Below are positions 807 through 36,960 of a DNA stretch of 64,000 nucleotides, in pieces (the first letter of the stretch is position 1; each line of letters opens with the position of its first letter). This stretch comes from an uncultured Pirellulales bacterium. Lineage in GTDB: Bacteria > Planctomycetota > Phycisphaerae > Sedimentisphaerales > SM23-30. Both the position numbers and the translations under genes were made by a program. The notes below the pieces were generated by a model that saw only the letters and a program-made list of their open reading frames with translations, made no database searches and was not told the origin of the DNA. The DNA lies in the NCBI GenBank assembly GCA_964580995.1, contig CAZOMV010000002.1, forward strand, positions 38,904 through 102,903. The letters are read 5' to 3'.

Positions 807-1607
807 ATGTCTGAAATCTCTGGTGAGTCCATTAAACAGCTTGCCCGCCGGGCTGGCTTCGATCTGGTGGGAATCACTTCTGCTGAACCTCTGGGGCAAG
901 AGTCCTTTTTTCGGAACTGGCTTGCGAAAGGCTTTCAGGGTGACATGCAATACCTCGAGCGAAATATCGAAACGCGCTGCGACCCCCGCCGGCTGGTTTC
1001 CGGAGCCCGCAGCGTCATTTGTACCGCCCTGAGCTATTATACCGAGCCGGAAAATCTCACAGGAAATCCCTCCTGTGGCCGTATCGCCCGCTTCGCCTGG
1101 GGAGAGGACTACCATGTGGTTCTGAAAAAGCAGCTTCGTCTGCTGATGGATGAAATACATGCCCTGACTGGCTACGCCTTCCGAATGCGTTCCTTTGTAG
1201 ATACAGCCCCTGTTTTTGAGAAACTTCTGGCGGCCCGAGCCGGCTTGGGCTGGATCGGGAAAAACAGCCTGCTCATCCACCCGCAATTCGGTTCGTGGCT
1301 GGTGCTGGGGGAAATTGTAACCGATGCCGTTCTGCCCTGTGATATGCCCCTGCCCGATGGTTGCGGCGAATGTACGCGGTGTCTGGAAAACTGCCCTACT
1401 GGGGCACTAGTACAACCCCGGTGTCTCGACGCTCGTCGTTGTATTTCCTATCTGACCCAGGTAACGAAAAAACCGATCCCAGCGGAATTTTCGGACAAAA
1501 TGAAGGGATTTATTTTTGGTTGCGACGTGTGTCAGGATTTTTGTCCCTATAATCAAAAACCAGAACGTCCGAAAGACCCCCGTTTCAACCATAATGGACT
1601 TGTCTGA
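807..1607 (+). CDS. queG: Epoxyqueuosine reductase (tRNA queuosine biosynthesis)
   Basis: It carries two 4Fe-4S ferredoxin motifs (CGECTRCLENCP and CDVCQDFCP). The overall QueG-like sequence includes CISYLT and GWIGKNSLLI. Confidence 0.85.
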   Translation: MSEISGESIKQLARRAGFDLVGITSAEPLGQESFFRNWLAKGFQGDMQYLERNIETRCDPRRLVSGARSVICTALSYYTEPENLTGNPSCGRIARFAWGEDYHVVLKKQLRLLMDEIHALTGYAFRMRSFVDTAPVFEKLLAARAGLGWIGKNSLLIHPQFGSWLVLGEIVTDAVLPCDMPLPDGCGECTRCLENCPTGALVQPRCLDARRCISYLTQVTKKPIPAEFSDKMKGFIFGCDVCQDFCPYNQKPERPKDPRFNHNGLV

Positions 1608-1619
1608 ATTCCGCGCAGC

Positions 1620-1660
1620 AAAAAACCGCCTTATCCTGTACCGAACAAGACGGCTTTTTT
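1620..1660. terminator. Candidate bidirectional intrinsic terminator between convergent queG and hsp20
   Basis: The stem is CCGCCTT / AAGACGG with one mismatch and a loop of about 13 nt. An A6 run precedes it and a T7 run follows it. Confidence 0.45.
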
Positions 1661-1743
1661 ACGTATCACGCAGAACAACTGCGTTGGCTAATGGCTACAT
1701 GATATAATTTTCACTTCGTTTCTTCGCAGAAGCCTCGGCGGTG

Positions 1744-2540: not shown

Positions 2541-3170
2541 ATGCTTGCGGCTCAATCGGCATTGGATTGTCAGGTCTTAGTCCTGAACAAACATTACATG
2601 GCCATTCGGGTGGTCAATGTAAAGCGGGCCTTCTCTCTGCTTTTTCGCAACATGGCCGAAGTGGTTCTCTATGAGCATGGCAAGTACAGTAATCACAATA
2701 TCCAAAACTGGCTGGAACTGTCCCAGCTGAAAAGTCAGTTCGAGCCGGATGCCCACGACTGGATTCACACCATCCATATCAGCATCGCCGTTCCCCGGAT
2801 CGTCCGGCTGCTCTTTTACGACCATTTACCCCGCCGTGATGTTACCTTTAACCGCCGCAACATCTACGGGCGGGACCAAAACCGTTGCCAGTATTGCGGT
2901 AAACGCTTCCCAACCAATGAATTAAGCCTCGACCACGTCATCCCCCGCAGCATGGGCGGCCAGTCCAACTGGGAAAATATTGTTTGTGCCTGCCTGAAAT
3001 GTAATGTCAAAAAAGGCGGCCAGACTCCCACCCAGGCTCATATGAAACTAATCACCAAACCCCTCAAACCCAAACACAGCCCCGTCCTCAATATCAATCT
3101 GGGTGACAGCCGCTACCATTCCTGGAAGCAATTCCTCGATCATGCCTACTGGTCCGTCGAACTGAAATAA
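2541..3170 (+). CDS. HNH endonuclease (McrA-like conserved family)
   Basis: The HNH/zinc motif is CQYCGKRF...LSLDHVIPRSMGGQSNWENIVCACLKCNVKKGG. The N-terminal VLVLNKHYMAIRVVNVKRAFSLL region is typical of this family. Confidence 0.8.
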   Translation: MLAAQSALDCQVLVLNKHYMAIRVVNVKRAFSLLFRNMAEVVLYEHGKYSNHNIQNWLELSQLKSQFEPDAHDWIHTIHISIAVPRIVRLLFYDHLPRRDVTFNRRNIYGRDQNRCQYCGKRFPTNELSLDHVIPRSMGGQSNWENIVCACLKCNVKKGGQTPTQAHMKLITKPLKPKHSPVLNINLGDSRYHSWKQFLDHAYWSVELK

Positions 3171-3232
3171 TATTTCCCCTTCAGGATGATTTTCGGTAAA
3201 ATCCACTATTTCGCGTTTAGAAAGGAATTGCC

Positions 3233-4858
3233 ATGCGCAAAGCTGTGGAATTGGATCGCCGTTACCTGGCTCGCTTTGATACCCGTTCACTGGGTCACTT
3301 ATATACCGATTGTCTGATTGTTGGAGCCGGAGTAGCTGGTCTCCGTGCCGCTCTCAGCGCCAGCCAGGCAGGACAGGTTCTGGTTCTGGTCAAGGCCCAC
3401 GGCAGTGACAGCAATACCTATCATGCCCAGGGCGGGATCGCTGCCGCCTTCGATCCCGGCGACAGCGTGGCATCCCATGTCGCCGATACCCTCAAAACCG
3501 GCTGCGGATTGTGTGACCGGGAGGTGGTGGAACTGGTTATTGGGGATAGTGCCCATCAAATTCGCCAGTTGCAGCAGTGGTCCATGCCTTTCGATACCCG
3601 CGACGGCAAAATCGACGCCGGTCGGGAAGGCGGTCACAGCTATTCGCGGGTCTATCATGCCTTGGGTGACGCAACCGGCAAGGCAGTCTTTCTGACGCTG
3701 ATGGAACAGGCCAAAAAAAACAAAAATATAAAAATATTCGAAAACTGTTTTGTGGTCGATTTGCTCACAGAGAATAAAAATTGTCTGGGTGTGGTTTGTT
3801 TTCATCCGAAGTACGGCTGGCAGTGTATCTGGGCGCGTAAAACCATACTCGCCAGCGGCGGCGCGGGCCAACTCTATCGCGAAACCACGAACCCCGCCAG
3901 TGCCACCGCTGATGGTCTGGCCATGGCCTATCGCGCCGGGGTAATCCTGACCGATATGGAGTTCATGCAGTTTCATCCCACTACCCTCTATATCGCCGGG
4001 GCTACCCGAACCCTCGTTACCGAAGCCATGCGCGGCGAGGGTGCGTATCTGGTTGACCGCAAGGGCAACCGGTTCATGAAGGAATATCACGAAATGGCCG
4101 AACTGGCTCCCCGGGACATCGTCTCCCGCATGATTTACAACCACATGGCCAAAACCAACGCCACCAATGTCTTTCTTGATGTCCGTCATTTCGGCAGCGC
4201 CTGGCTGGCCGAGAGATTCCCCACCATCAGCGAACTTTGCAAAAGCTTCGATATCGACGTCGATAATGATCTGATCCCCGTCCGTCCCAGTGCCCATTAC
4301 ATGATCGGCGGCGTGAAAACCGATATTCAGGGACGCACCGCGATTGCCAACCTGTACTGCTGTGGGGAAGCCTCCGCCACCGGATTGCACGGCAGTAATC
4401 GGCTTGCCAGCAATTCCCTCCTGGAAGGCCTGGTGTTCGGGCAGATCTGCGGCGAAAATGCCGCTCAGGAAATCGCCTGCACGGGCGGCAAAATCGAACA
4501 CAGCCACCTGATTTCCGACGTCCCCGTTTCCCAACGGACGCGGCTGGATGTGGTGGATGTGACGAATTCGCTGCGGGCGGTGATGTGGCGGAATGTCGGC
4601 ATCGAGCGGCAGGGCGACCGCCTGGCGGAAACCATCGAAATCATCGATTTCTGGCGCCGCTATGTTATGGACAAAGTCTTCGATACCCCGGACGGCTGGC
4701 AGTGCCAGAATATGCTGACGGTTTGTAAATGGATGGCAGATAGCGCTTTACTTAGAAAGGAAAGCCGCGGCGTTCATTATCGGATCGATTATCCGGAGCT
4801 GGATGAGCGAAATTTTGGCAGGCATCTGGATATTCCTGCCACGCAGATTTACGGCTGA
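3233..4858 (+). CDS. nadB: L-aspartate oxidase (NAD biosynthesis)
   Basis: It has an FAD dinucleotide fold (DCLIVGAGVAGLRAAL). HAQGGIAAA and the RGEGA..PRD region are succinate-dehydrogenase/fumarate-reductase-flavoprotein-like NadB motifs. Confidence 0.9.
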   Translation: MRKAVELDRRYLARFDTRSLGHLYTDCLIVGAGVAGLRAALSASQAGQVLVLVKAHGSDSNTYHAQGGIAAAFDPGDSVASHVADTLKTGCGLCDREVVELVIGDSAHQIRQLQQWSMPFDTRDGKIDAGREGGHSYSRVYHALGDATGKAVFLTLMEQAKKNKNIKIFENCFVVDLLTENKNCLGVVCFHPKYGWQCIWARKTILASGGAGQLYRETTNPASATADGLAMAYRAGVILTDMEFMQFHPTTLYIAGATRTLVTEAMRGEGAYLVDRKGNRFMKEYHEMAELAPRDIVSRMIYNHMAKTNATNVFLDVRHFGSAWLAERFPTISELCKSFDIDVDNDLIPVRPSAHYMIGGVKTDIQGRTAIANLYCCGEASATGLHGSNRLASNSLLEGLVFGQICGENAAQEIACTGGKIEHSHLISDVPVSQRTRLDVVDVTNSLRAVMWRNVGIERQGDRLAETIEIIDFWRRYVMDKVFDTPDGWQCQNMLTVCKWMADSALLRKESRGVHYRIDYPELDERNFGRHLDIPATQIYG

Positions 4859-4931: not shown

Positions 4932-6359
4932 TCACGGTTTCTCCCGCACTGTCTCCAGAATATTCACCTGCCCCCGCCGCGCCAGATCAATCGACTCCGC
5001 CAGAATCCGCGCTGACTCCTGCGCCGCATGAAATCCCGTGGAATTCTCCGCCGATATATAATCCAGCCGCCAGAAGGCCTTGCGGTGAAAATCCCGCGCC
5101 GCCGCTAACTGCTCCTCGCTGGCCCCCGCCTTTTGCGCCGCTTCAATAGCACCAATTAAATCCAGCACCGCCTCTTCCGCCTGGCTGAGCAGCGCCGCCG
5201 TCTTGTCCTGGATCGCCTCCGCCCGGGCCTTCAGCTCCGCCTCCTCAAAATGGTGGCAGGTTTGACAGGCCCGGTTCACATTCAGCAGCGGGCTGCGCAC
5301 ATGATGGTCGCTCACCTTCACCGCTCCCACCCGCATATAAGGCATATGGCAATCGGCGCAGGCCACCCCGCTGCGGGCATGGATCCCCTGGTTCCACAAC
5401 TCAAACTCCGGATGCTGCGCCTTCAGCAGCGGCGCCCCGCTGAGCTGGTGCGTCCAGTCCTGGAACTTTACCTCCTCGTAATACTTCTCACTCTGCTCCA
5501 CTTTCAGCCCGTTATGCCACGGATAGGTCAGCGTCTTCTTCTCCCCCTTGAAATAATACTCCACATGGCACTGCCCGCACACAAACGACCGCATCTCCTG
5601 CCGGCTGGCCATGGTATTGGCGTCATACTCCCCTTTCTTCTCCTTCCGCCACCGCTCGATACTGGCAAACTGCGGCAGGGGATACTCACTATTCGCCAGT
5701 GCCAGGATTCCGTTGATAAAGCCCGGCCGCGTTACCCGCAACTGCATGGTCGCCGGATCGTGGCAGTCCAGACACGTAATCGGATGGCTCACCAGCTTTC
5801 GCGCCTCCGCATAGGGCATCGCGCACACCGCCTCAAAGCCCGCCATAATCTGCTGCGACGGCTGATCGTCCGGAATCCCTGCTTCTTTCCCCGCCTGCCG
5901 ATAGGCCGGGATCACCGACGCATGACAATGCAGACAGGCTCCCGGCTGCTTAAACTCGCTGATCCGCCGGGTCTCATCCTGATCCGACAGCATATACGCA
6001 TGTCCCCGCTCCTCCCGGTAATCCACCCCGAACCCATACCCCATGAACAGGGTTACCCACCGCGGGTCCGCCTCCAGCTTGCCGAACGCCTCGCTGCCGC
6101 CGTGCTTGGTCCGCTCGATATCTACCGTCCGGCGGTAACTGTCATACTGAAAGGAAAAATTCTTCCCCCATACCTCCGGGTCCAGCGTATTCTCATCAAG
6201 CTGCACCACCGGGAAATAATACTGCCGGGCCTCCTCCTTTCGCTGCCGCACGTTCTCCAGCAGCAGAAACACCGAAAACGTGACAACCACCGCCAGAATA
6301 AATACCACCAGCAGCACAAAATATTTCATACCGGACTTACGGCTTGTTTCAGATGACAT
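4932..6359 (-). CDS. nrfA: Pentaheme cytochrome c nitrite reductase (ammonia-forming), NrfA family
   Basis: Five heme-binding motifs are present: CLHCH, CLDCH, CGQCHVEYYF, CADCHMPY and CQTCH. There is an N-terminal TM/signal segment. The start is placed at ATG 6359 with GGAG 7 nt upstream; the ORF track starts at 6491. Confidence 0.85.
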   Translation of the reverse strand: MSSETSRKSGMKYFVLLVVFILAVVVTFSVFLLLENVRQRKEEARQYYFPVVQLDENTLDPEVWGKNFSFQYDSYRRTVDIERTKHGGSEAFGKLEADPRWVTLFMGYGFGVDYREERGHAYMLSDQDETRRISEFKQPGACLHCHASVIPAYRQAGKEAGIPDDQPSQQIMAGFEAVCAMPYAEARKLVSHPITCLDCHDPATMQLRVTRPGFINGILALANSEYPLPQFASIERWRKEKKGEYDANTMASRQEMRSFVCGQCHVEYYFKGEKKTLTYPWHNGLKVEQSEKYYEEVKFQDWTHQLSGAPLLKAQHPEFELWNQGIHARSGVACADCHMPYMRVGAVKVSDHHVRSPLLNVNRACQTCHHFEEAELKARAEAIQDKTAALLSQAEEAVLDLIGAIEAAQKAGASEEQLAAARDFHRKAFWRLDYISAENSTGFHAAQESARILAESIDLARRGQVNILETVREKP

Positions 6360-9844: not shown

Positions 9845-10871
9845 TGCGTTTTGTTCCCGCGGGAGTACCGGCTGGCCGTAATACGCAAAGATATATATGG
9901 GGACATTCAGCCACCATGCTGGAATCCACACCTTTTGGTCCATCATCGTATCCTCCTGTAAAAAAAATATTTACCACAGATTCGATCAGCCAAACCATCC
10001 GGTTTGGCTTCGCTATAGTTATTATAATATCATAATTTATTTTGCCGGCAGAATCCAATAGCTCCTCTATATAGGGGCCGATGTCCACGAATGCGCAAGG
10101 ATTTTTCCATTTTTTTGGGAGAAAATGACGTAAACCCTTGTCAAAGCTCAACAAAATTTTTTTACGTTGCGCAATTTTGGCCATTCACCGTGGCCGTTAT
10201 TGCGCAATTTTTCCTTATCCATTTGATTTCAACTGGTTATGGCATTATTGTATGTGGGTTGGGCAGGGAAAATGGTAAGCTGGATGGATTGGGTAAGATT
10301 GGTAAATGTTGAATAAAGTGTAGTAAAAGATGAATGAAGTGATATAGAAGTATAGAAAAACCGCATGAAGCCTGAGTAAAACATATATAAAAGCGAATGT
10401 TTTTTACGCGTGGCATCTTGGCTGCGGCAGAAAGGTTTGCGGGACAAAGTTGCCTATATTTCCTATTTTTTCTCTATTGAAATAACTGGAGAGGGAAGAA
10501 GAAATTTTATTTTCAACCCGACCAGATGGGGGAGGAAAAGGCGATTCGGCTGGGGTTCGGGGCAATCATTCTGATCGGGTAATCTGCTGGGGGCTGGGAG
10601 GTTGGGGAGGGGAGGCAGGAGGGGTGCTGACGGGGGGGCGGGGTCAGGTCCGAGGGCGGGAAGAATGGCTGGAAAATATCAAATTTATTATTGGTTTGGA
10701 GTTGAGGCAGGGGTAGAATGGGGGCAGATTGGGCAGCATGAAGTGACAGGCAAGGTTTTTAAATATGGGAATAAGCGAATAAAATTGAATCACGGATTAC
10801 ACTGGTTGCATGGATTAAAGAGAATGCATAATCAAGGAAATGAAAATGTTTAGCCGGATTGTAGGAATAAA

Positions 10872-13715
10872 ATGCGTAAAGAAAATGATGTTAATGTATT
10901 TGATAGTCTGATTGCTGAAGCACCTAAAATTGCAGTTCTAAGTGATAATCCCATATCACTGGGAGAGATGAATAAAGATACCTTTCATTTAAGTTATCAT
11001 CTGGGGCCGATCTACGATATTATACGTCATGAGGACACGCAAATGCCTCTGACAATCGGCGTCTATGGTAAATGGGGATGCGGGAAAACCACGGCCATGA
11101 GATGGCTTGATGACGCTTTAAGACTGTGGAACAAGTCCGCAGAATCAAAAAATAAAATAACAACCAGAAACAGCTGGTTTTACCCCTGGAAATACCATGA
11201 TAAAGAAGAAGTCTGGAAAGGACTGATTAGTGAAGTAATATTAAATGCCATTGACTTTAAAAATGCCGAGTCTAAAACAGTGCTTAAAGCGGTTAAATTG
11301 CTTTCGTCATTTATTGGGAAATCAGCATTTGATATAGTTTCCGCTTGTGAATTTGAGGTGCCTGGGTTTAAGATAAATGGTGATATTGCAAAACAGATTA
11401 AAGATAATTTCAATACGGTCAACCATCCGGAAAAATCCTACCTTAACGAATATGAACGAGAACTGGACCAATGGATAAAAGATATACTATCGAATAACAA
11501 AAGAATGGTTATTTTTATCGATGACCTTGATCGATGTATGCCCGATATTGCCCTGCAGGTACTAGAGGCGATAAAGCTTTATCTTAAAATCGAAAAAATA
11601 ATATTTGTTATAGGTATGGATAGAAATATCGTTGAAAAGGCGGTAAAAGCTTATTGCGAAGAAAAACATATTGATGTAGACGATGATTATGGAAGAAAGT
11701 ATCTGGAAAAAATGTTTCAGGTTGAATTGCAGATGTCGCCATCCCAACGTGAGATGGACCTGTATCTTGATGCGCAACTGGAGACGGTACACTTTAAAAA
11801 ATGTATTGACCGAAAGAGTAAAAAAGGAAAAAGCAGTTATGAATTGTTTAAACATTTGATAGCCAAATATGGCGGGCGAAATCCCAGGGAAGTAAAAAGG
11901 CTTATTAACAATTCATTAATAAGAGGGGCTGGTGCAGATAAAATAAGAATCAATTCAAAGAAATTAACTTTTGAACAGGGAGTTCAGTTATATTTTATTC
12001 AAAAGATACTTATCGAAAGGTACAATCGATTTGAAGTGGTTGGTGATGGAGACATTGGTGATGGATTTTTTACAAAGTGGTCAACAATCGTGCGTGAAAA
12101 TAATCAAAAAAACGGATTTTTTCGTATTCTTAGTAAAACAACCATAGAGCGATATATGCCTGATAAAAGAGAAAAGGAAACGGATACTGTTTCAAGAAAT
12201 AGTGAAAAGTTGGCAGATTATCTTGTAGATACTTATTCGCAGTATTACAGCACTATTCTTCAAAGTGAAGAATATTCTGATTTACTAATCCTGCTTTCCG
12301 ATGAGGATCTTGGGGATCTCATGCAGATTGAATATTCGGCGGAAATTGCGGTATTTGCCAAGGAGCAACAGCTTGAGGTACCAGTTGCTGATGATGACAA
12401 AATTATTAATGCTGTGATTGCAGAAAAACTTGGGAAAGATCCACAGGATTTGACGGAGAAGGACTATGAAGTTATTAGCGATCTTGATCTTGCCGGCAAA
12501 AAGATATCTGACATTAAGCGACTTAAAAAGTGTGTCAATTTAAAAATATTAGACATGGAGGGTGCCGGCATCAGCGATATTTCACCACTTAGTCAGCTCC
12601 TACAGTTGGAAAGATTAAATCTAAACAATAATCAAATTAAAGACATTTCATCGCTCAGGGATATGGTGAATTTAACGGTATTGTCATTGTACGATAATAA
12701 TATTGATGACATAAGTCCGTTGCGTAATTTGACACAATTGATGAGTTTATATCTAAGCAAAAATCAGGTCCAAGATATTTCTCCGCTTGAAAATTTAGTG
12801 AATCTTACGGAATTATCATTATATGGGAACAAGATAGATGATATTACATCACTCAAAGGGTTGACAAACCTGGTGGACTTATATTTATTTGACAATCAGA
12901 TCAAAAACATTTCCGCGCTCGAAGCAATAACACATCTGAAAAGTTTACTTTTAAATCAGAATCATATTAGCGATGTATTTTCACTGGAAAAATTAGTAAC
13001 CCTTAAAACTCTACATTTGGAAAATAATCAGATTAAAAATATTTCGCCCCTTGCAAAACTAGTAAATTTGACTGAATTAAATTTAAGTGATAATCAGATT
13101 AGTAATATCTCGTCTCTCAAAGATATGAAAAATCTTGGAGGATTACACTTAAGCAAAAATCCTGTCCAAAACATACATCTGTTATGTGAATTAACGAACC
13201 TAAACGCATTAGATCTTTCGGAAACTATGGTAGAAGACCTTGCACCTCTGGCGATGTTAAGTAATTTGAGCCGGCTTTGTATTCGCCGCACACAAATCAA
13301 TAATCTTGAACCGATAAAAATACTTGTAAATCTGAAAAGTGTATTTCTGGAGGGTTGCACGAATATTACTGATGAACAGATTCGCGATCTGCAAAAGACT
13401 TTGCCGAATTGTGAAATTCAAGCATTTATAAAAGAAGTCACTCTTCTAAATAGAAAATACAGATTATTTTTTAACCCAAAGATAAAAGGAAAATCCAAAA
13501 TTATGCAGTTTGGCGCAAATGGGGTGATACTTGAAGGCAAAAACAAGAATGAGTCGTCTTGGCAAATTCGTAATGGTTTTCTTGAATTGCTAAATTCTGA
13601 CGGACAGGTGCATAGCCGTTTTTACTTTATTCCCAAAGATAACCGATTCAATCATACCAACGATGCGGACACACATTCCATCCGAGGGCAATATATTGTG
13701 CTGGAGGAAAATTAA
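10872..13715 (+). CDS. KAP-family P-loop NTPase fused to about 14 leucine-rich repeats and an unassigned C-terminal module of about 100 aa
   Basis: Walker A is GVYGKWGCGKTT, followed by the KAP-typical FYPWKY. Walker B is MVIFIDDLDRC, followed by LEAIKLYL, FVIGMDRNIV and YLEKMFQ. From aa 537 (nt 12480) there are about 14 tandem 22-aa repeats of the form L.L..N.I.DIS.L..L.NL. No TM insert is visible. The gene is visibly AT-rich relative to its flanks. Confidence 0.85.
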   Translation: MRKENDVNVFDSLIAEAPKIAVLSDNPISLGEMNKDTFHLSYHLGPIYDIIRHEDTQMPLTIGVYGKWGCGKTTAMRWLDDALRLWNKSAESKNKITTRNSWFYPWKYHDKEEVWKGLISEVILNAIDFKNAESKTVLKAVKLLSSFIGKSAFDIVSACEFEVPGFKINGDIAKQIKDNFNTVNHPEKSYLNEYERELDQWIKDILSNNKRMVIFIDDLDRCMPDIALQVLEAIKLYLKIEKIIFVIGMDRNIVEKAVKAYCEEKHIDVDDDYGRKYLEKMFQVELQMSPSQREMDLYLDAQLETVHFKKCIDRKSKKGKSSYELFKHLIAKYGGRNPREVKRLINNSLIRGAGADKIRINSKKLTFEQGVQLYFIQKILIERYNRFEVVGDGDIGDGFFTKWSTIVRENNQKNGFFRILSKTTIERYMPDKREKETDTVSRNSEKLADYLVDTYSQYYSTILQSEEYSDLLILLSDEDLGDLMQIEYSAEIAVFAKEQQLEVPVADDDKIINAVIAEKLGKDPQDLTEKDYEVISDLDLAGKKISDIKRLKKCVNLKILDMEGAGISDISPLSQLLQLERLNLNNNQIKDISSLRDMVNLTVLSLYDNNIDDISPLRNLTQLMSLYLSKNQVQDISPLENLVNLTELSLYGNKIDDITSLKGLTNLVDLYLFDNQIKNISALEAITHLKSLLLNQNHISDVFSLEKLVTLKTLHLENNQIKNISPLAKLVNLTELNLSDNQISNISSLKDMKNLGGLHLSKNPVQNIHLLCELTNLNALDLSETMVEDLAPLAMLSNLSRLCIRRTQINNLEPIKILVNLKSVFLEGCTNITDEQIRDLQKTLPNCEIQAFIKEVTLLNRKYRLFFNPKIKGKSKIMQFGANGVILEGKNKNESSWQIRNGFLELLNSDGQVHSRFYFIPKDNRFNHTNDADTHSIRGQYIVLEEN

Positions 13716-13750
13716 GATCGATTTTGTTTTGATTATCACAGGGAATGAAT

Positions 13751-13794
13751 GGACATACACGGACATACACGGACTGGCACGGACGGTCACGGAC
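13751..13794 (+). repeat. 10-bp-phased direct repeat (GGACNNNCAC units; CACGGAC x4, GGAC x5)
   Basis: The sequence is ggacatacac ggacatacac ggactggcac ggacggtcac ggac, with an exact 10-nt period. It lies between the KAP-LRR stop and the four-helix-bundle gene. Confidence 0.85.
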
Positions 13795-13988
13795 AAAGAA
13801 GATGGGATGAAAGAAAAGAAGAGAAGAGGAAAGAAATTTCAGAAGAAAGAAAAGAAAATAGATTCCTGCCCCTGATCGGGTCAAGGGCAGGCTTTTGCAG
13901 GAATCCCGATATATTGGGAACGGACGAGAGGCGGGGCAGGTGAGTTTGGCAGTTCAGAAAGAGATACTGACTGAAAGGAGGATATACA

Positions 13989-14634
13989 ATGGCAGAACAT
14001 GAGAAAATCCTGGTCAAGCATGGAGGGTATCGGAAACTAAAGAGTTTCCAGGTGGCGCAGCTTGTTTATGATGTTACGGTGCGTTTTTGCCAGCGGTATA
14101 TCGATCCGTACAGCAGGACGAAAGACCAGATGGTCCAGGCAGCGCGGAGCGGGATGGCGAATATCGCGGAAGGATCGCAGGCGTCGGACATCCAAAAAGA
14201 CAGAATTGAAGCTGACCAATGTGGCCCGGGCGAGTCTGGAGGAGTTGCGGCTGGACTATGAGGATTATTTACGACAGCGGGGGCTGCCGGTTTTCGAGGC
14301 GGAGGATCCGATATTAAAACGTTTTAAGGCCCGAAGGTGCAAGACGATTGCAGAGGTGAGCGATTGGATTCAACAAGAACGAAAGCAAATTCCAGACGGA
14401 CAGGGATCCACACCGCCGAGCAAAGATCCCGATGGTTTTGCGGTGGACAATGGCAATCCGGGGAAGCCCTTTTCTTCGGCGGAACTGGCAGCCAATGCGG
14501 CTTTGTCGCTGCTGAATCTGGTGTGCTATCTGCTGGGCCGGCAGATAGCGACCCAGGCGGAGGCCTTTGAACAGGAAGGAGGATTTACGGAACGGCTGCA
14601 CCGGGTCCGGAAACAAAGACCGGGGAAAACATGA
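13989..14634 (+). pseudogene. Four-helix-bundle protein (23S rRNA intervening-sequence protein / Avd-like family) with suffix domain, interrupted by a frameshift near 14183-14198
   Basis: ORF 13989..14261 carries the family N-terminal part (FQVAQLVYDVTVRF...QMVQAARSGMANIAEGSQAS). The family continuation (KKTELKLTNVARASLEELRLDYEDYLRQRGL...) is in the +1 frame, ORF 14062..14634. The junction lies at gcgtcggacatccaaaaagaca, which contains an A5 run. A strong SD (AAAGGAGGA) precedes 13989. Confidence 0.7.
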
Positions 14635-15351: not shown

Positions 15352-18108
15352 TCAGGGTGCACTGATATTGGTTACGATGCTGCTGGTTGTGAACGTGTTT
15401 GTCAGCGTGCCGGGTGTATAGGTCCCACCCTGATACAACCCGTCGGTTTTGGTCCCGGTCGAGCTCCCGCCGTTATACAGCTTGTAGCTCGTACCCGATA
15501 GGAAGTTCGGCGAAGAAAACACACACGATCTATAGGCTTTTGCCGGTGCAAAGGTCAGAACATCCGCGCCGGCGGCGGTTCTAATATGGATCAGAGTTCC
15601 GGCCGTCTTCCATTGGCTGTAGGTAATCTTCACGGAACGCTGCGTTGACGTGGAGCTGAGGGCCTGGGCCATCTGGGCACTGCCCACCCCCACCAGGAAT
15701 CCGCCGCTGATATTGCAGGTGCCGTCAAAGTCCACGGCATTGTTATCATTCGCGGTCGGACCGTTGATGATGACGGTCCCGCCCGTCATCACGATACTGC
15801 CATTGGCATCGATGCCGTCCCCGATGGCATTCACCACGATGTAGCCGCCGTTCACGTACAGGAAATAGTCGCTGTTGCCGCTGGGGGGAAAAGGCGGATG
15901 CCACGGATCGACGCCGCCGGAGCCATCGCCCCCGGCGATGTTGATCCCGTCATCGCTCGATGTAATGTGGAAAGTCCCGCCGTTGATGGTGATAATCGCA
16001 CCCTCGAGGCCTTCGTAGGAGCTGGTAATGGCCATCGTTCCGCCGTTTATCTCGACCGTGCTGTCGGAATGAACGGCGTCATCCCCGGTGGCAATCTCGA
16101 ATGTCCCGTTGTTGATCGTGATGGCCTCGTTGGTATGGATCGCATCGTCGGCACAGTCCATGTCGAACGTGCCGCCGTCAATTACCACGCTGACAAGACC
16201 TTTGATGCCCTTGGCCGAAAAGTCATCGGCAATGCTCGCCGTGTGGCCGCCACCGGAGAGGATGTTGAATTCGCCATCGTCGATGTCGATGGTGGTTTCG
16301 GCCGTGATGGCGTCCTCATCAGAAGTAACGTCAATATTACCGCCGGTGATCGTGATGGTTGAGCTTTCGATTCCCTCGTAGCTGTCCGTAATGGTGATCG
16401 TGCCGCCATCGATTCCAATGGCAATGTCCGCATGGATTCCATCGTCGCTGGAGGCGATGGTGGCCGCGCCGCCGCTGATTGTCACGGTATCGCCGGAGTG
16501 GAGTCCGTCATCGGCGCAATCGAGGTTGAGCGTGCCGCCGTTAATCACCACGCTGACAGGCCCTTTGATACCCTTGGCTGAAAAGTCATCGGCAATGCTG
16601 GCGGTGTGGCCGCCGCCGGAGACAATCGTGATGTCGCCCGCCAGCACGGTGACATTCGTCTCCGCCGCGATGCCGTCTCCACCGGAGGTGATGTCCAGCG
16701 ACCCATTCTCTATCGTGATGTATCCAAAATTGGGGTCTTCAGCGTTGGTGGATTTCAGCGCATCCCCTACGGCCGTCAGGGTGATGTCCCCATCCTGGAT
16801 CAGCAGATAGTCCTTGCCGCAAATGCCGTCGTCAACCGAGATGACGTCGAGGGTGCCGCCGTTGATAATCAGATCGTCCTTACTTACGATGGCGTCGCTG
16901 TAGTTCCCGTGAACGGTCAGTGTGCCGGTACCGGATATCGACATCGAGTCCTTACTGAACAAACAGCCGCTGGGTTCGTCCTGGTTCGGATCTTCGAACA
17001 CATATTCATCCGCGTCGAACAGGTAGTTCTGGGTCTGATCGGCCAGCACGAACGACGTGAACGAGGCGTCGATCACATGGATTGCGGCGCTCGTGGAGTT
17101 AGTGATAGAAACACCGGCCAGGATAATCTCCACCGTACCGGCTGAGGGAGAATTCACGGCGAGCTGCCCATCGTTGAGCGTGCCGCTGACGTTGTAGGTG
17201 CCGGCGGCCGTGATGGTGGCTGTCGTTCCATCCACCGTGACGCCGGTGCCGTTAACGGTGATCGAATCCCCGTTCAAGAGGATCTGCGTGGGGCCGGAAG
17301 CCTCCGAACGGCAGCCGCACAACGGTTCGGCGGGAATGCCATCGCCGCTGTAACAGCTCGCGAAAACGGCGTAATCGAGCATATCCACGTCGTAATCCTC
17401 ATCGGCATCCGCCAGGACAATACCGTTTTCATCGGGGGTCAAGCCGCACGACGGGTTGGCCGAATTGTCTGTGACGAGGTAACAGCTCACGAAATTGACG
17501 AAGTCGTTCAGATCCACATCGCCGTCCATGTCGTAATCGCTCAAGGCATAGCCCACGATCCGGCCGGGACTGGCGATATCGCCGCCCGCGGAGGTCCGCG
17601 AACCGAAGATGTCCCTGACCGCGGCCAGGCTCCAGTCCGTCTGGGCAATCGTCTGGCCGTAATCGGAGGCTGGAATATTGCAACTGGCATACTGGGTGCG
17701 CGGCGTGCCGGGGTAGTTCTCGTCGCCGTAGCTCAACTGGTCCACCAGGACATCGCTTGAATCGTAGAGATTGATCTGGCCATTCCGGTCTATGTTGGTA
17801 GTGGACTCGCCGATGATGGTGACGCCGGTTAGTTCCCAGGCGGCGGCGAAGTCCGCGGCCACCGCTTCGGTCAAAATGACTGATTCGCCAGGATCGACCA
17901 CGCCGAAAGCGCTCAAGTCCACTGTACCCGGGGTTTGGCTGCCATCGTCGAAACTCCACCCGGACATATCCACCGGGACTGTGCCGACGTTCGTAAATTC
18001 GATAAATTCTCCGTCCGTCCCGCTGTACATCCACTCCGTAATGGCCATCTGGCCGGAAGCGACCTGGGCGAGAATCACGATCAATCCGAATAGTAGCGTG
18101 CGCTGCAT
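15352..18108 (-). CDS. Secreted multidomain protein: lamin-tail-like domain, two dockerin/EF-hand-like segments, and a parallel beta-helix carbohydrate-binding-like region with an internal duplication
   Basis: The start is placed at ATG 18108 with AAGGAGG upstream and the signal peptide MQRTLLFGLIVILAQVASG. ITEWMYSGTDGEFIEFTN...MSGWSFDD is LTD-like. DYDMDGDVDLNDFVNFVSCY and DADEDYDVDMLDYAVFASCY are dockerin-like. Gly/Asp/Thr/Ile-rich coils (DDGIH.., GGT..I) resemble the Cthe_2159-type beta-helix family. Confidence 0.8.
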   Translation of the reverse strand: MQRTLLFGLIVILAQVASGQMAITEWMYSGTDGEFIEFTNVGTVPVDMSGWSFDDGSQTPGTVDLSAFGVVDPGESVILTEAVAADFAAAWELTGVTIIGESTTNIDRNGQINLYDSSDVLVDQLSYGDENYPGTPRTQYASCNIPASDYGQTIAQTDWSLAAVRDIFGSRTSAGGDIASPGRIVGYALSDYDMDGDVDLNDFVNFVSCYLVTDNSANPSCGLTPDENGIVLADADEDYDVDMLDYAVFASCYSGDGIPAEPLCGCRSEASGPTQILLNGDSITVNGTGVTVDGTTATITAAGTYNVSGTLNDGQLAVNSPSAGTVEIILAGVSITNSTSAAIHVIDASFTSFVLADQTQNYLFDADEYVFEDPNQDEPSGCLFSKDSMSISGTGTLTVHGNYSDAIVSKDDLIINGGTLDVISVDDGICGKDYLLIQDGDITLTAVGDALKSTNAEDPNFGYITIENGSLDITSGGDGIAAETNVTVLAGDITIVSGGGHTASIADDFSAKGIKGPVSVVINGGTLNLDCADDGLHSGDTVTISGGAATIASSDDGIHADIAIGIDGGTITITDSYEGIESSTITITGGNIDVTSDEDAITAETTIDIDDGEFNILSGGGHTASIADDFSAKGIKGLVSVVIDGGTFDMDCADDAIHTNEAITINNGTFEIATGDDAVHSDSTVEINGGTMAITSSYEGLEGAIITINGGTFHITSSDDGINIAGGDGSGGVDPWHPPFPPSGNSDYFLYVNGGYIVVNAIGDGIDANGSIVMTGGTVIINGPTANDNNAVDFDGTCNISGGFLVGVGSAQMAQALSSTSTQRSVKITYSQWKTAGTLIHIRTAAGADVLTFAPAKAYRSCVFSSPNFLSGTSYKLYNGGSSTGTKTDGLYQGGTYTPGTLTNTFTTSSIVTNISAP

Positions 18109-18480
18109 ACGAAACCTCCTTGGGCACAAAAACTCATCCACGAATAATTTATTGTCAAATATACCTGTCAGGCACATTCCTAACAAAATCCAAACGGCAT
18201 AAAACTCTTTCCTATATAGTAAGTGCTTGCTTTTGGCTAAAAGTAGCAACGGGATTGGAAAAAATTGCATCGAGGCCGCATAATTTTAAATAGGATAGAT
18301 TGGGCCACTCCAAATTCGTTGGTGGAAACGATGTTTAGTATTGATATAAGTGATTTAGATTTATTGCTTTATGCCGCCGGCAGGGGGCGGTATTTCACGA
18401 TACCGCCCGTATGTACTCCTGCCGCTGCTTATGCCGGAGGTTTTCATGCGATAAATCCATCTCCTGTAACCATCCAGAAA

Positions 18481-33368: not shown

Positions 33369-33674
33369 TCACGCCCCCGCCTCGCCCAGCACCTTGGGCA
33401 CCGAGAAAAACGCCCCATCCCGCTGCGGGGCATTCTTCAGCGCCTCCTCATTGCTCAGCGATGGCCGGATCACATCCTCCCGCAGCACATTATGCACCGG
33501 CAGGCAATGGGCCAGCGGCTCCACATCCTGCGTGTCCAGCTCATCCAACTGCGCCACATAATCCAGAATGGCGCTAAGCTGGCCGGTGAACAGGGTAATT
33601 TCCTGGTCCGTGCAGTTCAGCCGCGCCAGCTTGGCCACCTGCCGCACCTGTTGTTCTGTCAATCGCTCACTCAT
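33369..33674 (-). CDS. gatC: Asp-tRNA(Asn)/Glu-tRNA(Gln) amidotransferase subunit C
   Basis: The sequence is LTEQQVRQVAKLARLNCTDQEITLFTGQLSAILDYVAQLDELDTQDVEP. The start could be 33674 or 33686. Confidence 0.85.
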   Translation of the reverse strand: MSERLTEQQVRQVAKLARLNCTDQEITLFTGQLSAILDYVAQLDELDTQDVEPLAHCLPVHNVLREDVIRPSLSNEEALKNAPQRDGAFFSVPKVLGEAGA

Positions 33675-33900
33675 CGGCTTCCTCATATTCAGATTTCTAA
33701 CTCGGTCCCTGACCCCAGCAGGACAGGGAATTCAACAGACTATTCAATTAATCCAACATACTATCACAGCCAGAGAGGTTTTTCCAGAAAAGAATAAACT
33801 CCCGACCTTACGGCTCGACCGATTATAAATGCCGATCTGACATGGAATTATATTTGCCCCCTGCCTTTCCCGCCGGTTCCCGATTTCCACTTTATACAAC

Positions 33901-33935
33901 ACGGCCCGACTGGATAGCCAGCCGGGCCGTTTTTA
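33901..33935. terminator. Strong GC hairpin with T5 tract just 3' of the 33952 gene (T-run on the plus strand)
   Basis: The stem is ACGGCCCGaCTGG-atag-CCAGcCGGGCCGT, followed by TTTTT. A homologous hairpin (AACCGGCCGG...CCGGCCGGTT, then TT) lies at about 34906-34936 behind the paralog. Its orientation is not the canonical one for the minus-strand genes. Confidence 0.4.
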
Positions 33936-33951
33936 CCTGATAAAAGCTGGT

Positions 33952-34749
33952 TTATTCACAAATTGTATTACTCTGGTCATTGCAGTCCAGCCAACTCTGG
34001 GCGAAGATAGCAAAATCTTCCAGATTCACATAGCAGTCCCAATTAAAATCCATCGGAAGCTGGGTCGTACAACTGTCACTGATGGCAAAAGAAACGGCAT
34101 TCCAATCCGTATTAGCCAAATCTGCCGGGCCATGCGCACAGACCATCACATCGATTGTATCGCCGGCTGTCACCTCGCAGGTATCGGAAAACGCCATGGG
34201 GCTTTCGGGTGTTACACCTATTTGTTCCAGCAGGACCGTGCGCTGATTGGGATCCGCGGCAACACTTTTCACGATGTAAGCATCTACCAGGCCTCCCTGG
34301 CTCAGATACATGGAGGCATCTATGGAGACGACACTGGGAGCAGCAAACGAGGCAGGAGCGGTCCAGCGGATCAGGGCAGGGACTTCCACGGCAGGCCCCG
34401 TAGTAGTATAACCGGGTTTCATGCCATGCACTCCGGCTGGCACGCCGACTTCGGGTCCAACCCAAAGATGCGGTGCAGCCCCCTGCCATTCCTTCAACCA
34501 CAATATGTTAGCCCCTACCCTTACCCCACTATCCTCCAACAATCCCTCATAGATAGGAATTCTATTGGGATCGGTGGGATCGCCTACAGCGTATCCATAG
34601 GACCAGATGCCATTGTCATTGATAGAGGCATTCATATCGGTATTTACATTCCAGACATCCGCCGAGGCAAGACTGCATACAGACACATTTACCACGGTGA
34701 TCAGCGTCCCTATAGCCAGGAAACATTTTAAACTTATTTTCGTTTTCAT
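33952..34749 (-). CDS. Secreted protein: one uncharacterised module of about 200 aa plus a dockerin-like Cys-containing tail
   Basis: It has a signal peptide. The module carries the motifs WNVNTDMNASINDNGIWSYGY, IRWTAPA and AGDTIDVMV. The tail is LPMDFNWDCYVNLEDFAIFAQSWLDCND. Confidence 0.7.
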   Translation of the reverse strand: MKTKISLKCFLAIGTLITVVNVSVCSLASADVWNVNTDMNASINDNGIWSYGYAVGDPTDPNRIPIYEGLLEDSGVRVGANILWLKEWQGAAPHLWVGPEVGVPAGVHGMKPGYTTTGPAVEVPALIRWTAPASFAAPSVVSIDASMYLSQGGLVDAYIVKSVAADPNQRTVLLEQIGVTPESPMAFSDTCEVTAGDTIDVMVCAHGPADLANTDWNAVSFAISDSCTTQLPMDFNWDCYVNLEDFAIFAQSWLDCNDQSNTICE

Positions 34750-34956
34750 TTTTATTATTCTCCAAAACTATTTTTGTACCACATTCTAAATTCAAAAGCG
34801 GACGACTATCCGTGAGCCGGATACTTTCCCAGATCAAATCAGGATCTGCTCTTTCCACCAACTTCTTCTCTTTGTTCTTTTCACAACATTTCCATTGTGG
34901 ATCATTCGAACCGGCCGGATACCTAACCCGGCCGGTTTTACCGGATGAAAGTTGGT

Positions 34957-36282
34957 TTATTGACAACCTGGATCACTGATGTCATTGCAGTCCAGCCAGC
35001 TTTGGGCGAAAATGGCAAGATCTTCCAGGTTCACATAGCAATCCTCATTAAAGTCCATGGGAAGGTAAGTCACACAGGTTAGAAAACCTTCGGATATGGT
35101 AATCGAAGTAGCCGTCCAATCGCTCACCGCCGCACCTGCCGGACCAAGCATACAATCAATGGTGTCGCCTGCTACAATCGTGCATTCCGTTTTAGACGCA
35201 AAGGGGGCTGCGATGGATACACCATTTTTTGCATCCAGGATCGTTTGCTGATTGGCATCCCCGGCAATGCTTTTCACTACTTTAACATCTACCAAGCCAC
35301 CGGGTCTGGTTGGTTGAAATGATGCTTCAATTATGATATTAATAGGAGTAACAATGGCGGCAGGGGCGGTCCAGCGGAATATGGCTGGTTCACCGCCTGC
35401 ACCAGGGTGCATACCATGCATGCCACGGGGCACATCAACACCTGCGCTGCCTTTCCAAATGTGTGGTCCCCCGTGAGTGCCTTCTACCCAAATAAATCGT
35501 TCTCCTGCTACCGCACGAACATCATCGATCAAGCCTTCAAAGACAGTAAAATTGGGATCGCCGTATCCATAGGACCAGATGCCATTATCATTGACAGAGG
35601 TATCCATGTCTGTATTCAGATCCCACGGGGTAACACCAGGATCTTTTGGCGCATCGGTGATGGTAATAGCTGTCGTAGTCCAATCATTAGCTGGGCTGCC
35701 TGCCGGGCCGACCATAAAATCAATCGTGTCGCCTGCTGCAACCGTGCAGGGAGTTGAAAACGTAACGCCGTCTGCGGAGGTTATACCTGTTTCACGCAGT
35801 AAAAACGTTTGCTGATTGGGATCCCCTGCCACGCTTTTCACGATAATAACATCTACCACGCCAGAGTTGACGGGCTGAAACCATCCATGAATTGACATAT
35901 TAGTAGGAGTAACGATAGTGGCAGGAGCGGTCCAGCGGATTACGGCTGGGACATCACCTCCAAGGGTTTTCACACCGCCATTCATGCCATGGAATCCAAG
36001 GGGCACTCCAACAAGGGATCCAACGAAAATGTGTGGAACCGCACCATTCACGTCCTTGATCCAGATATTATTTGTTCCTCCGGATGAACCCCCATTATCC
36101 AGTAACCCTTTATAGGCAACTATGTTAGGATCGTTTGGATCAAATTCCGCATATCCATAGGACCAGATGCCATTATCGCCTATGGATGCGTTCATATCCG
36201 TATTCACATCCCAGGTAGTCGCCGAGGCAATACTGCCTAGAGACACACCCAGCATTGCAATCAACACCAGTACCTTTTTCAT
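34957..36282 (-). CDS. Secreted paralog with two tandem copies of the same module plus a dockerin-like tail
   Basis: The start is placed at MKKVLVLIAMLGVSLGSIASA (ATG 36282). The motifs are repeated (WDVNTDMNASIGDNGIWSYGY / WDLNTDMDTSVNDNGIWSYGY; IRWTAPA / FRWTAPA; AGDTIDFMV / AGDTIDCML). The tail is LPMDFNEDCYVNLEDLAIFAQSWLDCND. Confidence 0.7.
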   Translation of the reverse strand: MKKVLVLIAMLGVSLGSIASATTWDVNTDMNASIGDNGIWSYGYAEFDPNDPNIVAYKGLLDNGGSSGGTNNIWIKDVNGAVPHIFVGSLVGVPLGFHGMNGGVKTLGGDVPAVIRWTAPATIVTPTNMSIHGWFQPVNSGVVDVIIVKSVAGDPNQQTFLLRETGITSADGVTFSTPCTVAAGDTIDFMVGPAGSPANDWTTTAITITDAPKDPGVTPWDLNTDMDTSVNDNGIWSYGYGDPNFTVFEGLIDDVRAVAGERFIWVEGTHGGPHIWKGSAGVDVPRGMHGMHPGAGGEPAIFRWTAPAAIVTPINIIIEASFQPTRPGGLVDVKVVKSIAGDANQQTILDAKNGVSIAAPFASKTECTIVAGDTIDCMLGPAGAAVSDWTATSITISEGFLTCVTYLPMDFNEDCYVNLEDLAIFAQSWLDCNDISDPGCQ

Positions 36283-36630
36283 CTTACTTTCCTCCGATTG
36301 GCAAAACGGTTTTTCTCGCTTTGTCAATTTGTAAAAAAGACCATACAATAAAACACACGCACTTTCGTGCACATATACAGAAAACTACGTACGGATGAGA
36401 TTATGATTTGCACACGTAACAAGAAGAGAACACAGACAAAATCCAAGTGAAGCGTTTTCTCATCCTTTGAATTTATACGTTAATCATAACGACATGATAA
36501 CAAGTTGTCAAGCGAAAAGTAACAATAGCATAAGGGATAAATATTTTATAAATAAGAAGTTGCGCTAATTTAACTTCTTATTTCATAACAATTTAACCCA
36601 TGTCGTCGGTGGTTTTCCAAGACTTGATTG

Positions 36631-36690: not shown

Positions 36691-36960
36691 TTATGCGGTT
36701 GCTTTTTCTGGTTCGCCGCTCCAGTTCCGTTTGGGGGATTTAGTGACCATACCGTTGCGAATGGCTTTGGCGGAGACCCGCAGGCGGACAATCTTACCAT
36801 CCACCAGGGCCCGGACCTTCTGGATATTGGGTTTGAACTTGCGTTTGCTGATCCCGGTTATCTTGCGACCGACTCCGCCTAAGTATTTGGCTTTACCGCG
36901 CCGGGAGATGCTCCGACCAGCCCGGGTTCGTTTACCTGTTATTTGACATACTCGCGACAT
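36691..36960 (-). CDS. rpmB: 50S ribosomal protein L28
   Basis: The sequence is MSRVCQITGKRTRAGRSISRRGKAKYLGGVGRKITGISKRKFKPNIQKVR, a canonical L28 N-terminus. Confidence 0.92.
   Translation of the reverse strand: MSRVCQITGKRTRAGRSISRRGKAKYLGGVGRKITGISKRKFKPNIQKVRALVDGKIVRLRVSAKAIRNGMVTKSPKRNWSGEPEKATA

Follow-up and report, generated by a model that had tools for sequence, protein, structure and literature searches.

Cohesin/dockerin assemblies with LTD anchors, named planctosomes, were proposed earlier for the Planctomycetes (PMC6461901), and an isolate of the Sedimentisphaerales, Limihaloglobus sulfuriphilus, has been flagged as scaffoldin-containing (PMC11557425). The present work concerns a stretch of 64,000 nucleotides (from here on, the window) of contig CAZOMV010000002.1, from an assembly (GCA_964580995.1) recorded as an uncultured Pirellulales bacterium and placed by GTDB in the Sedimentisphaerales, where two adjacent genes, A and B, encode one or two copies of a protein module followed by a short tail with four cysteines that recalls half a dockerin. 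Taking overall architecture and mechanism together, we hold with moderate confidence that A and B, two paralogues long conserved side by side, encode secreted, surface-docked binding proteins. Their ligand would probably be a glycan, a point on which we are less confident.

Both genes lie on the minus strand as head-to-tail neighbours. The product of gene A consists of a signal peptide, one module and the tail, and that of gene B of a signal peptide, two modules and the tail, with the following layout:

33952..34749, minus strand: gene A, an open reading frame (ORF) of 265 residues, identical to database protein P0001
34660..34749, minus strand: putative signal peptide of gene A, residues 1-30, ...VSVCSLASA before DV, read from the sequence (three lysines in the n-region, hydrophobic core, A-S-A)
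34075..34659, minus strand: module A, residues 31-225, delimited by alignment; all-beta in the AlphaFold2 model
33955..34074, minus strand: tail A, a four-Cys single dockerin-like repeat, SCTTQLPMDFNWDCYVNLEDFAIFAQSWLDCNDQSNTICE, delimited by alignment, with a profile match in the PDB
34957..36282, minus strand: gene B, an ORF of 441 residues, identical to database protein P0004
36220..36282, minus strand: putative signal peptide of gene B, residues 1-21, MKKVLVLIAMLGVSLGSIASA before TT, read from the sequence (basic n-region, hydrophobic core, A-S-A at -3 to -1)
35635..36219, minus strand: module B1, residues 22-216, delimited by alignment; family-profile hmmsearch, independent E-value (i-E) 7.9e-96
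35080..35631, minus strand: module B2, residues 218-401, delimited by alignment; 50% identical to B1 by BLASTP, E 2e-59
34960..35079, minus strand: tail B, a four-Cys single dockerin-like repeat, TCVTYLPMDFNEDCYVNLEDLAIFAQSWLDCNDISDPGCQ, delimited by alignment, whose profile matches dockerin 2y3n_B in the PDB

An earlier note on this DNA, made from the letters alone, had described three module copies spread over two neighbouring genes that end in a shared cysteine tail, and a six-frame hmmsearch of the window returned exactly that, three modules and two tails. The motifs listed there are all present, save that B1 reads VVD for LVD and B2 reads VVKS for IVKS. In alignment the modules share 54% (A/B1), 49% (A/B2) and 52% (B1/B2) of their residues, and the tails agree at 77% of amino-acid and 79% of nucleotide positions. 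Regarding the start of gene B, its long ORF opens at a GTG at 36372, and the ATG at 36282, with a GGAGG (36291..36295) 8 nucleotides upstream, is almost certainly the true initiation codon. Both products begin with a Lys-rich n-region, a hydrophobic core of 12-15 residues and A-S-A ahead of the mature end, a layout common to all close homologues with a complete N-terminus. These canonical signals predict export via Sec and cleavage by type I signal peptidase (SPase-I), in agreement with the secretion assumed in the note. The VSVC stretch of gene A invited a lipoprotein interpretation, which was rejected: a Val at -1 is unfit for a lipobox, and the A-S-A site comes after it.

The module represents a widespread extracellular domain family of about 190-200 residues for which Pfam, NCBIfam and the PDB hold no model. 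Searched against Pfam-A (2025) and NCBIfam release 20, proteins A and B gave no match even at E<=10, and 44 diverse modules of the family gave no significant match, noise only. The best model of a carbohydrate-binding module (CBM) over these 44 was CBM_4_9_1, with E 0.099 and for one sequence, so that no CBM family reached significance, and against PDB sequences the module profile found one chance-level match, to a sobemovirus coat protein (E 0.17). A literature search with the module motifs, and likewise with choice-of-anchor plus PEP-CTERM, gave nothing pertinent. On the other hand, a first profile of 18 modules, run by exhaustive HMMER search against 1.84 billion cluster representatives (50% identity), recovered 392 clusters at E<=1e-3, 36 of them at E<=1e-10, and most of the 392 matches span the whole profile of about 190 positions. 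A second profile (A4), built from the 44 diverse modules and used to score 8000 candidates, added at least 244 proteins at E<=1e-5, most of them 210-310 residues long and several carrying a precomputed PEP-CTERM domain. The few A4 matches named by their source come from Candidatus Poribacteria (labelled 'PEP-CTERM sorting domain-containing protein'), Verrucomicrobia and the cyanobacteria Microcoleus and Microseira, together with Planctomycetota-related records. The recurrence in many PEP-CTERM proteins across phyla to which the note had pointed is thus borne out. In Microcoleus, two module proteins of 309 residues (P0228 and P0230) bear the source names 'HicA family toxin' or 'HicA-like mRNA interferase', probably through misannotation or a fusion.

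An AlphaFold2 model of module A, computed from an 18-sequence alignment, is all-beta, with a predicted local distance difference test score (pLDDT) of 89.9 and a predicted template-modelling score of 0.88. Foldseek comparison of this and of a full-length model with the PDB placed jelly-roll binding modules at the top, namely CBM4-2, CBM15, CBM6, CBM35, CBM61, the cleaved-adhesin domain of gingipain and MAM, all of them weak matches at template-modelling (TM) scores of 0.3-0.47, a level that points to a fold class, and with sequence identities of 10-18%. As far as models go, the fold is probably of the jelly-roll beta-sandwich class. Assignment to a known CBM family was dropped, since the matches are generic jelly rolls with TM below 0.5, and the structural comparison proposed in the note yielded no confident match to a characterised family.

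Pfam scans of the larger members revealed the company that the module keeps. It is fused to GH2 (P0015), Laminin_G_3 (P0020, P0046 and P0051), a legume lectin (P0049), galactose/glyoxal-oxidase-like Kelch propellers (P0023 and P0047), BACON (P0018), CotH plus LTD (P0077 and P0083), FGE-sulfatase (P0098), spacers of the Ig and CarboxypepD_reg types, and a type IX secretion system (T9SS) Por_Secre_tail (P0048). All of these partners are extracellular and most are glycan-related, and it is because of this company and of the tandem copies that we propose an accessory role of the CBM or lectin kind. A motif, ...(R/K)FYR(L/A)xxx, recurs at the C-terminus of many large module proteins (P0018, P0030, P0039, P0042, P0080, P0111, P0121, P0137, P0140 and P0154), where it may correspond to the final strand of a further sorting or anchoring domain.

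The tail is the second element of the locus. Over 40 residues, A and B share the pattern x-C-x3-LPMDFNxDCYVNLEDxAIFAQSWLDCNDxxxxxC-x, and the four cysteines are invariant in the tails of 13 close relatives, obtained by a word-indexed protein search, and of four others. The register is D1-x-N3-x-D5-C6-Y-V8-x-L-x-D12-F-A-x-F-A-x-x-W-L, so that the calcium-loop register of an F-hand can be read in DFNWDCYVNLEDFAIFAQSWL and DFNEDCYVNLEDLAIFAQSWL. The best PDB match of the tail profile is a dockerin, 2y3n_B (E 2.4e-5), both of whose repeats align in register with the single repeat of the tail, and further dockerins, scaffoldin chains and an EF-hand protein match below significance (E 0.1-1). The dockerin-like character noticed earlier is well founded. 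In the full-length model tail A appears as a separate loop plus helix (mature residues 213-226). In sequence terms, then, the tail amounts to a single F-hand of the dockerin type supplied with additional cysteines. We do not class it as a dockerin, because Dockerin_1 is silent and the repeat is single.

A scan of metagenomes, comprising activated-sludge assemblies and metagenome records of the Joint Genome Institute (JGI), found the tail at 61 loci. Its cargo, surveyed in 33 of the metagenome proteins, includes the glycoside hydrolase domains GH10 (2), GH43, GH2, GH30 and GH59, the binding modules CBM4/9 (2), CBM6 and CBM35, and also Laminin_G_3 (4), FN3, PKD and PQQ propellers. The module is present in only 6 of the 61 loci, from which it follows that tail and module are independent building blocks.

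The survey of C-terminal ends suggested in the note shows that the module, in turn, is served by more than one anchor. Of 160 module proteins, 27 or more finish with the Cys-dockerin tail, 26 or more with PEP-CTERM, the latter counted with a regular expression that misses variants such as VPIPGAVWL...RRK, and one, P0048, with a T9SS Por_Secre_tail. The distant homologues P0050 and P0066 pass the Pfam cutoff for PEP-CTERM. Proteins A and B give no match to PEP-CTERM (PF07589 / TIGR02595) and lack a PEP motif, a transmembrane helix and an Arg cluster. Both kinds of end meet within one locus: at orthologous positions in sister genomes (L001, L005 and L006) a third gene, located between gatC and the one-module gene, codes for a protein whose module has diverged (28% identity to module A, E 4e-7) and whose end is VPEPMTIGLFSLGGLALLRRRR, a textbook PEP-CTERM signal. 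The genes concerned are the following:

33369..33686 of the window: gatC, which flanks gene A
36691..36960 of the window: rpmB (L28), which flanks gene B
6439..7122 of L001: third paralogue
1377..2060 of L005: third paralogue
1422..2111 of L006: third paralogue

In L004 the third paralogue (2620..3303) is split into two ORFs, and it is absent from L003 and from the window, where 33687..33951 is intergenic. Because Cys tail and PEP-CTERM sit at the same place on paralogues of one locus, we take both to tether their proteins to the cell surface.

These data can be put together in a mechanism. Each product would be exported by Sec and cleaved after ASA, and its mature part would comprise one (A) or two (B) beta-jelly-roll modules of about 190 residues. 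The module would be a ligand-binding accessory, most likely glycan-binding and CBM- or lectin-like, and its two copies in B could raise the avidity or add another specificity. As for the final 40 residues, they are of dockerin type in sequence and would form an autonomous unit of a single calcium loop plus helix, probably stapled by disulfides and presumably binding Ca2+. This unit would dock the protein non-covalently onto a partner at the cell surface or on a scaffold, the same anchoring role that PEP-CTERM may fill at the same position on other members of the family.

Several points weigh against this picture. The tail is modelled at low confidence (pLDDT 54-66), A and B have one repeat per tail where real dockerins have two, and Pfam Dockerin_1 gives the tail no score in a scan of both proteins at E<=10. 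Within the window no cohesin-like partner turned up, in the course of analyses none of which was aimed at cohesins. As for the module, the TM scores given above point to a fold class and speak for kinship to no particular CBM family, its glycan ligand is deduced from domain company and tandem copies, and the polar residues invariant in the family (an H, an R and two D) might just as well belong to a catalytic or metal site. Finally, secretion of A and B is predicted from signal peptides read by eye.

A farther-reading version of the same scheme would see in the four-Cys half-dockerin the address tag of an undescribed system of surface display or enzyme assembly, cellulosome-like but with a non-canonical partner, in anaerobic Planctomycetota and their neighbours, and in the module the founder of a new CBM family attached interchangeably by this tag or by PEP-CTERM/exosortase. 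We put it forward tentatively, as an idea with a modest chance of being right.

The ligand is where the binding-protein reading meets its most serious competitor. Exopolysaccharide and biofilm systems are the general setting of PEP-CTERM proteins, jelly rolls of TNF, C1q and viral capsids also appear among the Foldseek matches, and the module is often the sole domain between signal peptide and anchor. All this would suit a structural or adhesive unit of a surface coat, possibly oligomeric like TNF/C1q, that acts through protein-protein contacts or in the assembly of a biofilm matrix and binds no carbohydrate. Such a role would however sit badly with the partners found in the large proteins, mostly glycan-related (GH2, LamG, legume lectin, BACON and AA5-like oxidases), and with the fact that the same Cys tail decorates carbohydrate-active enzymes, and we consider it doubtful.

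A second competitor concerns the tail, which could be a C-terminal sorting signal for a dedicated and undescribed machinery of export or anchoring, as PEP-CTERM is for exosortase. It lies at the extreme C-terminus in 45 of the 61 metagenome loci, in signal-peptide-bearing proteins of 250-1500 residues, and in all 13 close homologues of A and B; moreover, it replaces PEP-CTERM on paralogues of one locus, and its single repeat with four invariant cysteines, to which Dockerin_1 remains silent, is unlike canonical dockerins. The same unit is however also met immediately behind signal peptides, in the interior of proteins, in two copies per protein and as tandem pairs of repeats, positions at which a processed C-terminal signal would be unworkable. 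In the proteins encoded at L055, L057, L061 and L067 it spans residues ~25-58, and their C-terminal ends (e.g., ...YGFRLVLDH) look FGE-sulfatase/SUMF1-like. Two tandem Cys repeats (...DGDVDLEDFSDFAVDWMQCNDP...C) make up the C-terminal ~70 residues of large proteins, about 670-1500 residues long where complete, at L060, L062, L063, L068, L070 and L071, and this two-repeat version appears, from its sequence, to bridge the single-repeat tail and canonical dockerins. Furthermore, the tail is devoid of a transmembrane segment or basic cluster and is in sequence register with real dockerins. Because of these N-terminal, internal, doubled and tandem placements we favour an autonomous binding module, and regard a processed sorting signal as unlikely.

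The possibility that the module is a catalytic jelly roll (a polysaccharide lyase, a hydrolase or another enzyme), which would make secreted enzymes of A and B, brings us back to its conserved residues. The family consensus derived from A4 is xWDxxxDFSxxxNPNGxWSYG...W...VPxGxxxLHPG...VxRWTAP...GDxGxxDV...AGDTIDFxVG...DxTxL, where W19, G22, R98 and P102 are invariant across the 44 diverse modules. Invariant or nearly so are the H of LHPG, the R of RWTAP, the two D of GDTIDF and the Y/W of NGxWSYG, as could be expected of an active site, and many one-module members contain no other domain. Against catalysis, tandem arrays of 2-5 copies per protein typify binding or spacer modules rather than catalytic domains (the 160 module proteins inspected carry one copy in 88 cases, two in 39, three in 25 and four or five in 6), the module is appended to bona fide enzymes (GH2, galactose-oxidase-like), and its nearest folds are non-catalytic (CBM, MAM, TNF-like). 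An enzymatic role is in our opinion quite improbable.

Returning to A and B as a pair of binding proteins, the genomic context informs about their age. In L001, from another genome, the order is rpmB, two-module gene, one-module gene, third gene and gatC, which is the order of the window plus the third gene. Partial versions are seen in L003, L004 and L005, where gatC, an esterase and gatA are preceded by a one-module gene. When all modules are placed in a neighbour-joining tree, five different two-module proteins contribute their first modules to one clade (bootstrap 90) and their second modules to another (bootstrap 100), the two being sisters (bootstrap 82), and the one-module proteins fall outside both. 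Since each module position forms a multi-genome clade and the layout is conserved, both the gene duplication and the internal duplication predate the divergence of these genomes, and the A/B pair is old and conserved and not newly duplicating. A one-module homologue, P0009 (257 residues, on an ENA contig of 1164 bases), combines a head that groups with first modules of two-module proteins and a second-module end (DWTATSITISEGELTCVTY), as if a two-module gene had collapsed by recombination between its internal repeats.

The 3' flanks of the two genes are also alike, as the note had reported, with about 80% identity over some 50 nucleotides past the stop codons, comprising TAAACCAnCTTTnATCnGGTAAAA and a GC hairpin:

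34937..34959, minus strand: box TAAACCAACTTTCATCCGGTAAAA behind gene B, which precedes the hairpin and whose TAA is the stop codon of gene B
34910..34936, minus strand: GC hairpin behind gene B (RNA fold -25.7 kcal/mol, z -3.95)
33931..33954, minus strand: box TAAACCAGCTTTTATCAGGTAAAAA behind gene A, which precedes the hairpin and whose TAA is the stop codon of gene A
33901..33930, minus strand: GC hairpin behind gene A (RNA fold -28.2 kcal/mol, z -5.06)

Both hairpins have GC-rich stems of 11-13 base pairs. The box, TAAACCAGnTTnTATCAGGTAAA, and a GC hairpin are equally kept behind the orthologues in L001 (~6247..6300), L003 (~875..930), L004 and L007 (~1640..1700), where the sequence of the stems varies and their pairing is maintained. 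A U-run follows the hairpin in L003 and neither of those in the window, and an Rfam scan of the locus assigned the element to no family. Because it is equally conserved in orthologues, we regard box plus hairpin as a selected feature and not as the footprint of a fresh copy, as the note had supposed; most likely it ends transcription or stabilises the mRNA. The box is kept in paralogues and orthologues alike. That gene conversion by itself accounts for the likeness of tails and 3' flanks was rejected, given that orthologues in other genomes keep the same sequences. Finally, the claim of the note that the modules are actively duplicating here, as recent tandem duplicates that brought the 3' flank along, can draw on the tandem genes, the 77% likeness of their tails and that of the flanks, but is highly improbable in view of modules only 49-54% identical, the same two-gene layout between rpmB and gatC in another genome and in partial form in several more, the multi-genome clade of each module position, and a box and hairpin equally conserved in orthologues.

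Two further features of the window touch on these genes:

36483..36511, minus strand: promoter-like site TTGACA-17-TATGAT upstream of gene B, with 11/12 matches in a consensus scan, a candidate only, as the number of sites in the scan was not above the shuffle expectation
15352..18270, minus strand: secreted protein of 972 residues with signal peptide, Lamin Tail Domain (LTD), two internal dockerin-like Cys repeats and a carbohydrate-binding beta-helix domain, Cthe_2159

The second had been likened in the note to the tails of A and B. Its repeats, DYDMDGDVDLNDFVNFVSCYL...NPSC and DADEDYDVDMLDYAVFASCYSG...EPLCGC, located between the LTD and the Cthe_2159 domain, are indeed of the dockerin type with cysteines, but the tail profile matches the protein only weakly (i-E 0.043), so that the likeness holds loosely and the tail does not appear to be the same. 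The protein could be a partner or a fellow member of the same surface system. Elsewhere in the window, a low-GC island (10001..14000, GC 0.36-0.39 against ~0.55 around it) contains a single ORF, 10872..13715 on the plus strand, which encodes 947 residues of a KAP-family P-loop nucleoside triphosphatase fused to leucine-rich repeats; it looks horizontally acquired and may be related to defence or signalling.

Compared with known systems, the tail comes closest to type I dockerins (PF00404, e.g., 2y3n chain B), with which it shares the D1-x-N3-x-D5-x-x-V8-x-x-x-D12 loop followed by a hydrophobic helix, as well as a usually C-terminal position on secreted glycoside hydrolases and CBM-bearing proteins. 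It differs from them in having one repeat instead of two tandem repeats of ~22 residues, in its four invariant cysteines, one of them at loop position 6 (DC where dockerins have DG), and in that no cohesin partner is known for it. The planctosome and Limihaloglobus sulfuriphilus reports set a precedent, within this phylum, for surface assemblies of the dockerin type, and the 15352..18270 protein, like the planctosomes, joins an LTD with dockerin-like repeats; the assemblies of those reports are however built on canonical Pfam cohesin and dockerin domains, and the passages concerned mention neither the four-Cys repeat nor the module. With PEP-CTERM/exosortase surface proteins the locus has in common the succession of signal peptide, module and short C-terminal anchor, whereas the tails of the window would be soluble units of cysteines and a calcium loop. 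In the case of the module, jelly-roll CBMs (CBM4/9, CBM6, CBM15, CBM35 and CBM61), MAM and the gingipain adhesin resemble it in the all-beta jelly-roll sandwich predicted for it and in their similar size, and the CBMs also in being accessory, tandem and placed beside glycoside hydrolases, but it is longer (about 190 residues against 130-165) and matches no Pfam CBM model. It also recalls the choice-of-anchor domains of NCBIfam, in that one module is combined with PEP-CTERM, a dockerin-like tail, a T9SS C-terminal domain and other ends, but matches none of their hidden Markov models, the best being choice_anch_U with E 0.093 for 1 of the 44 sequences.

Defining the module would lift the 'hypothetical' label from hundreds of surface proteins, and it merits an entry in Pfam. 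Moreover, the free exchange of PEP-CTERM and dockerin-like tails constitutes a natural experiment on surface attachment in Gram-negative bacteria, and the presence of the four-Cys tag on many glycoside hydrolases and CBM proteins may point to an unrecognised organisation of polysaccharide enzymes outside the cellulosome paradigm of the Firmicutes. Altogether, what is new with respect to the known systems is an unmodelled domain family of a familiar kind and a variant on the dockerin theme, which add to those systems and overturn no principle.

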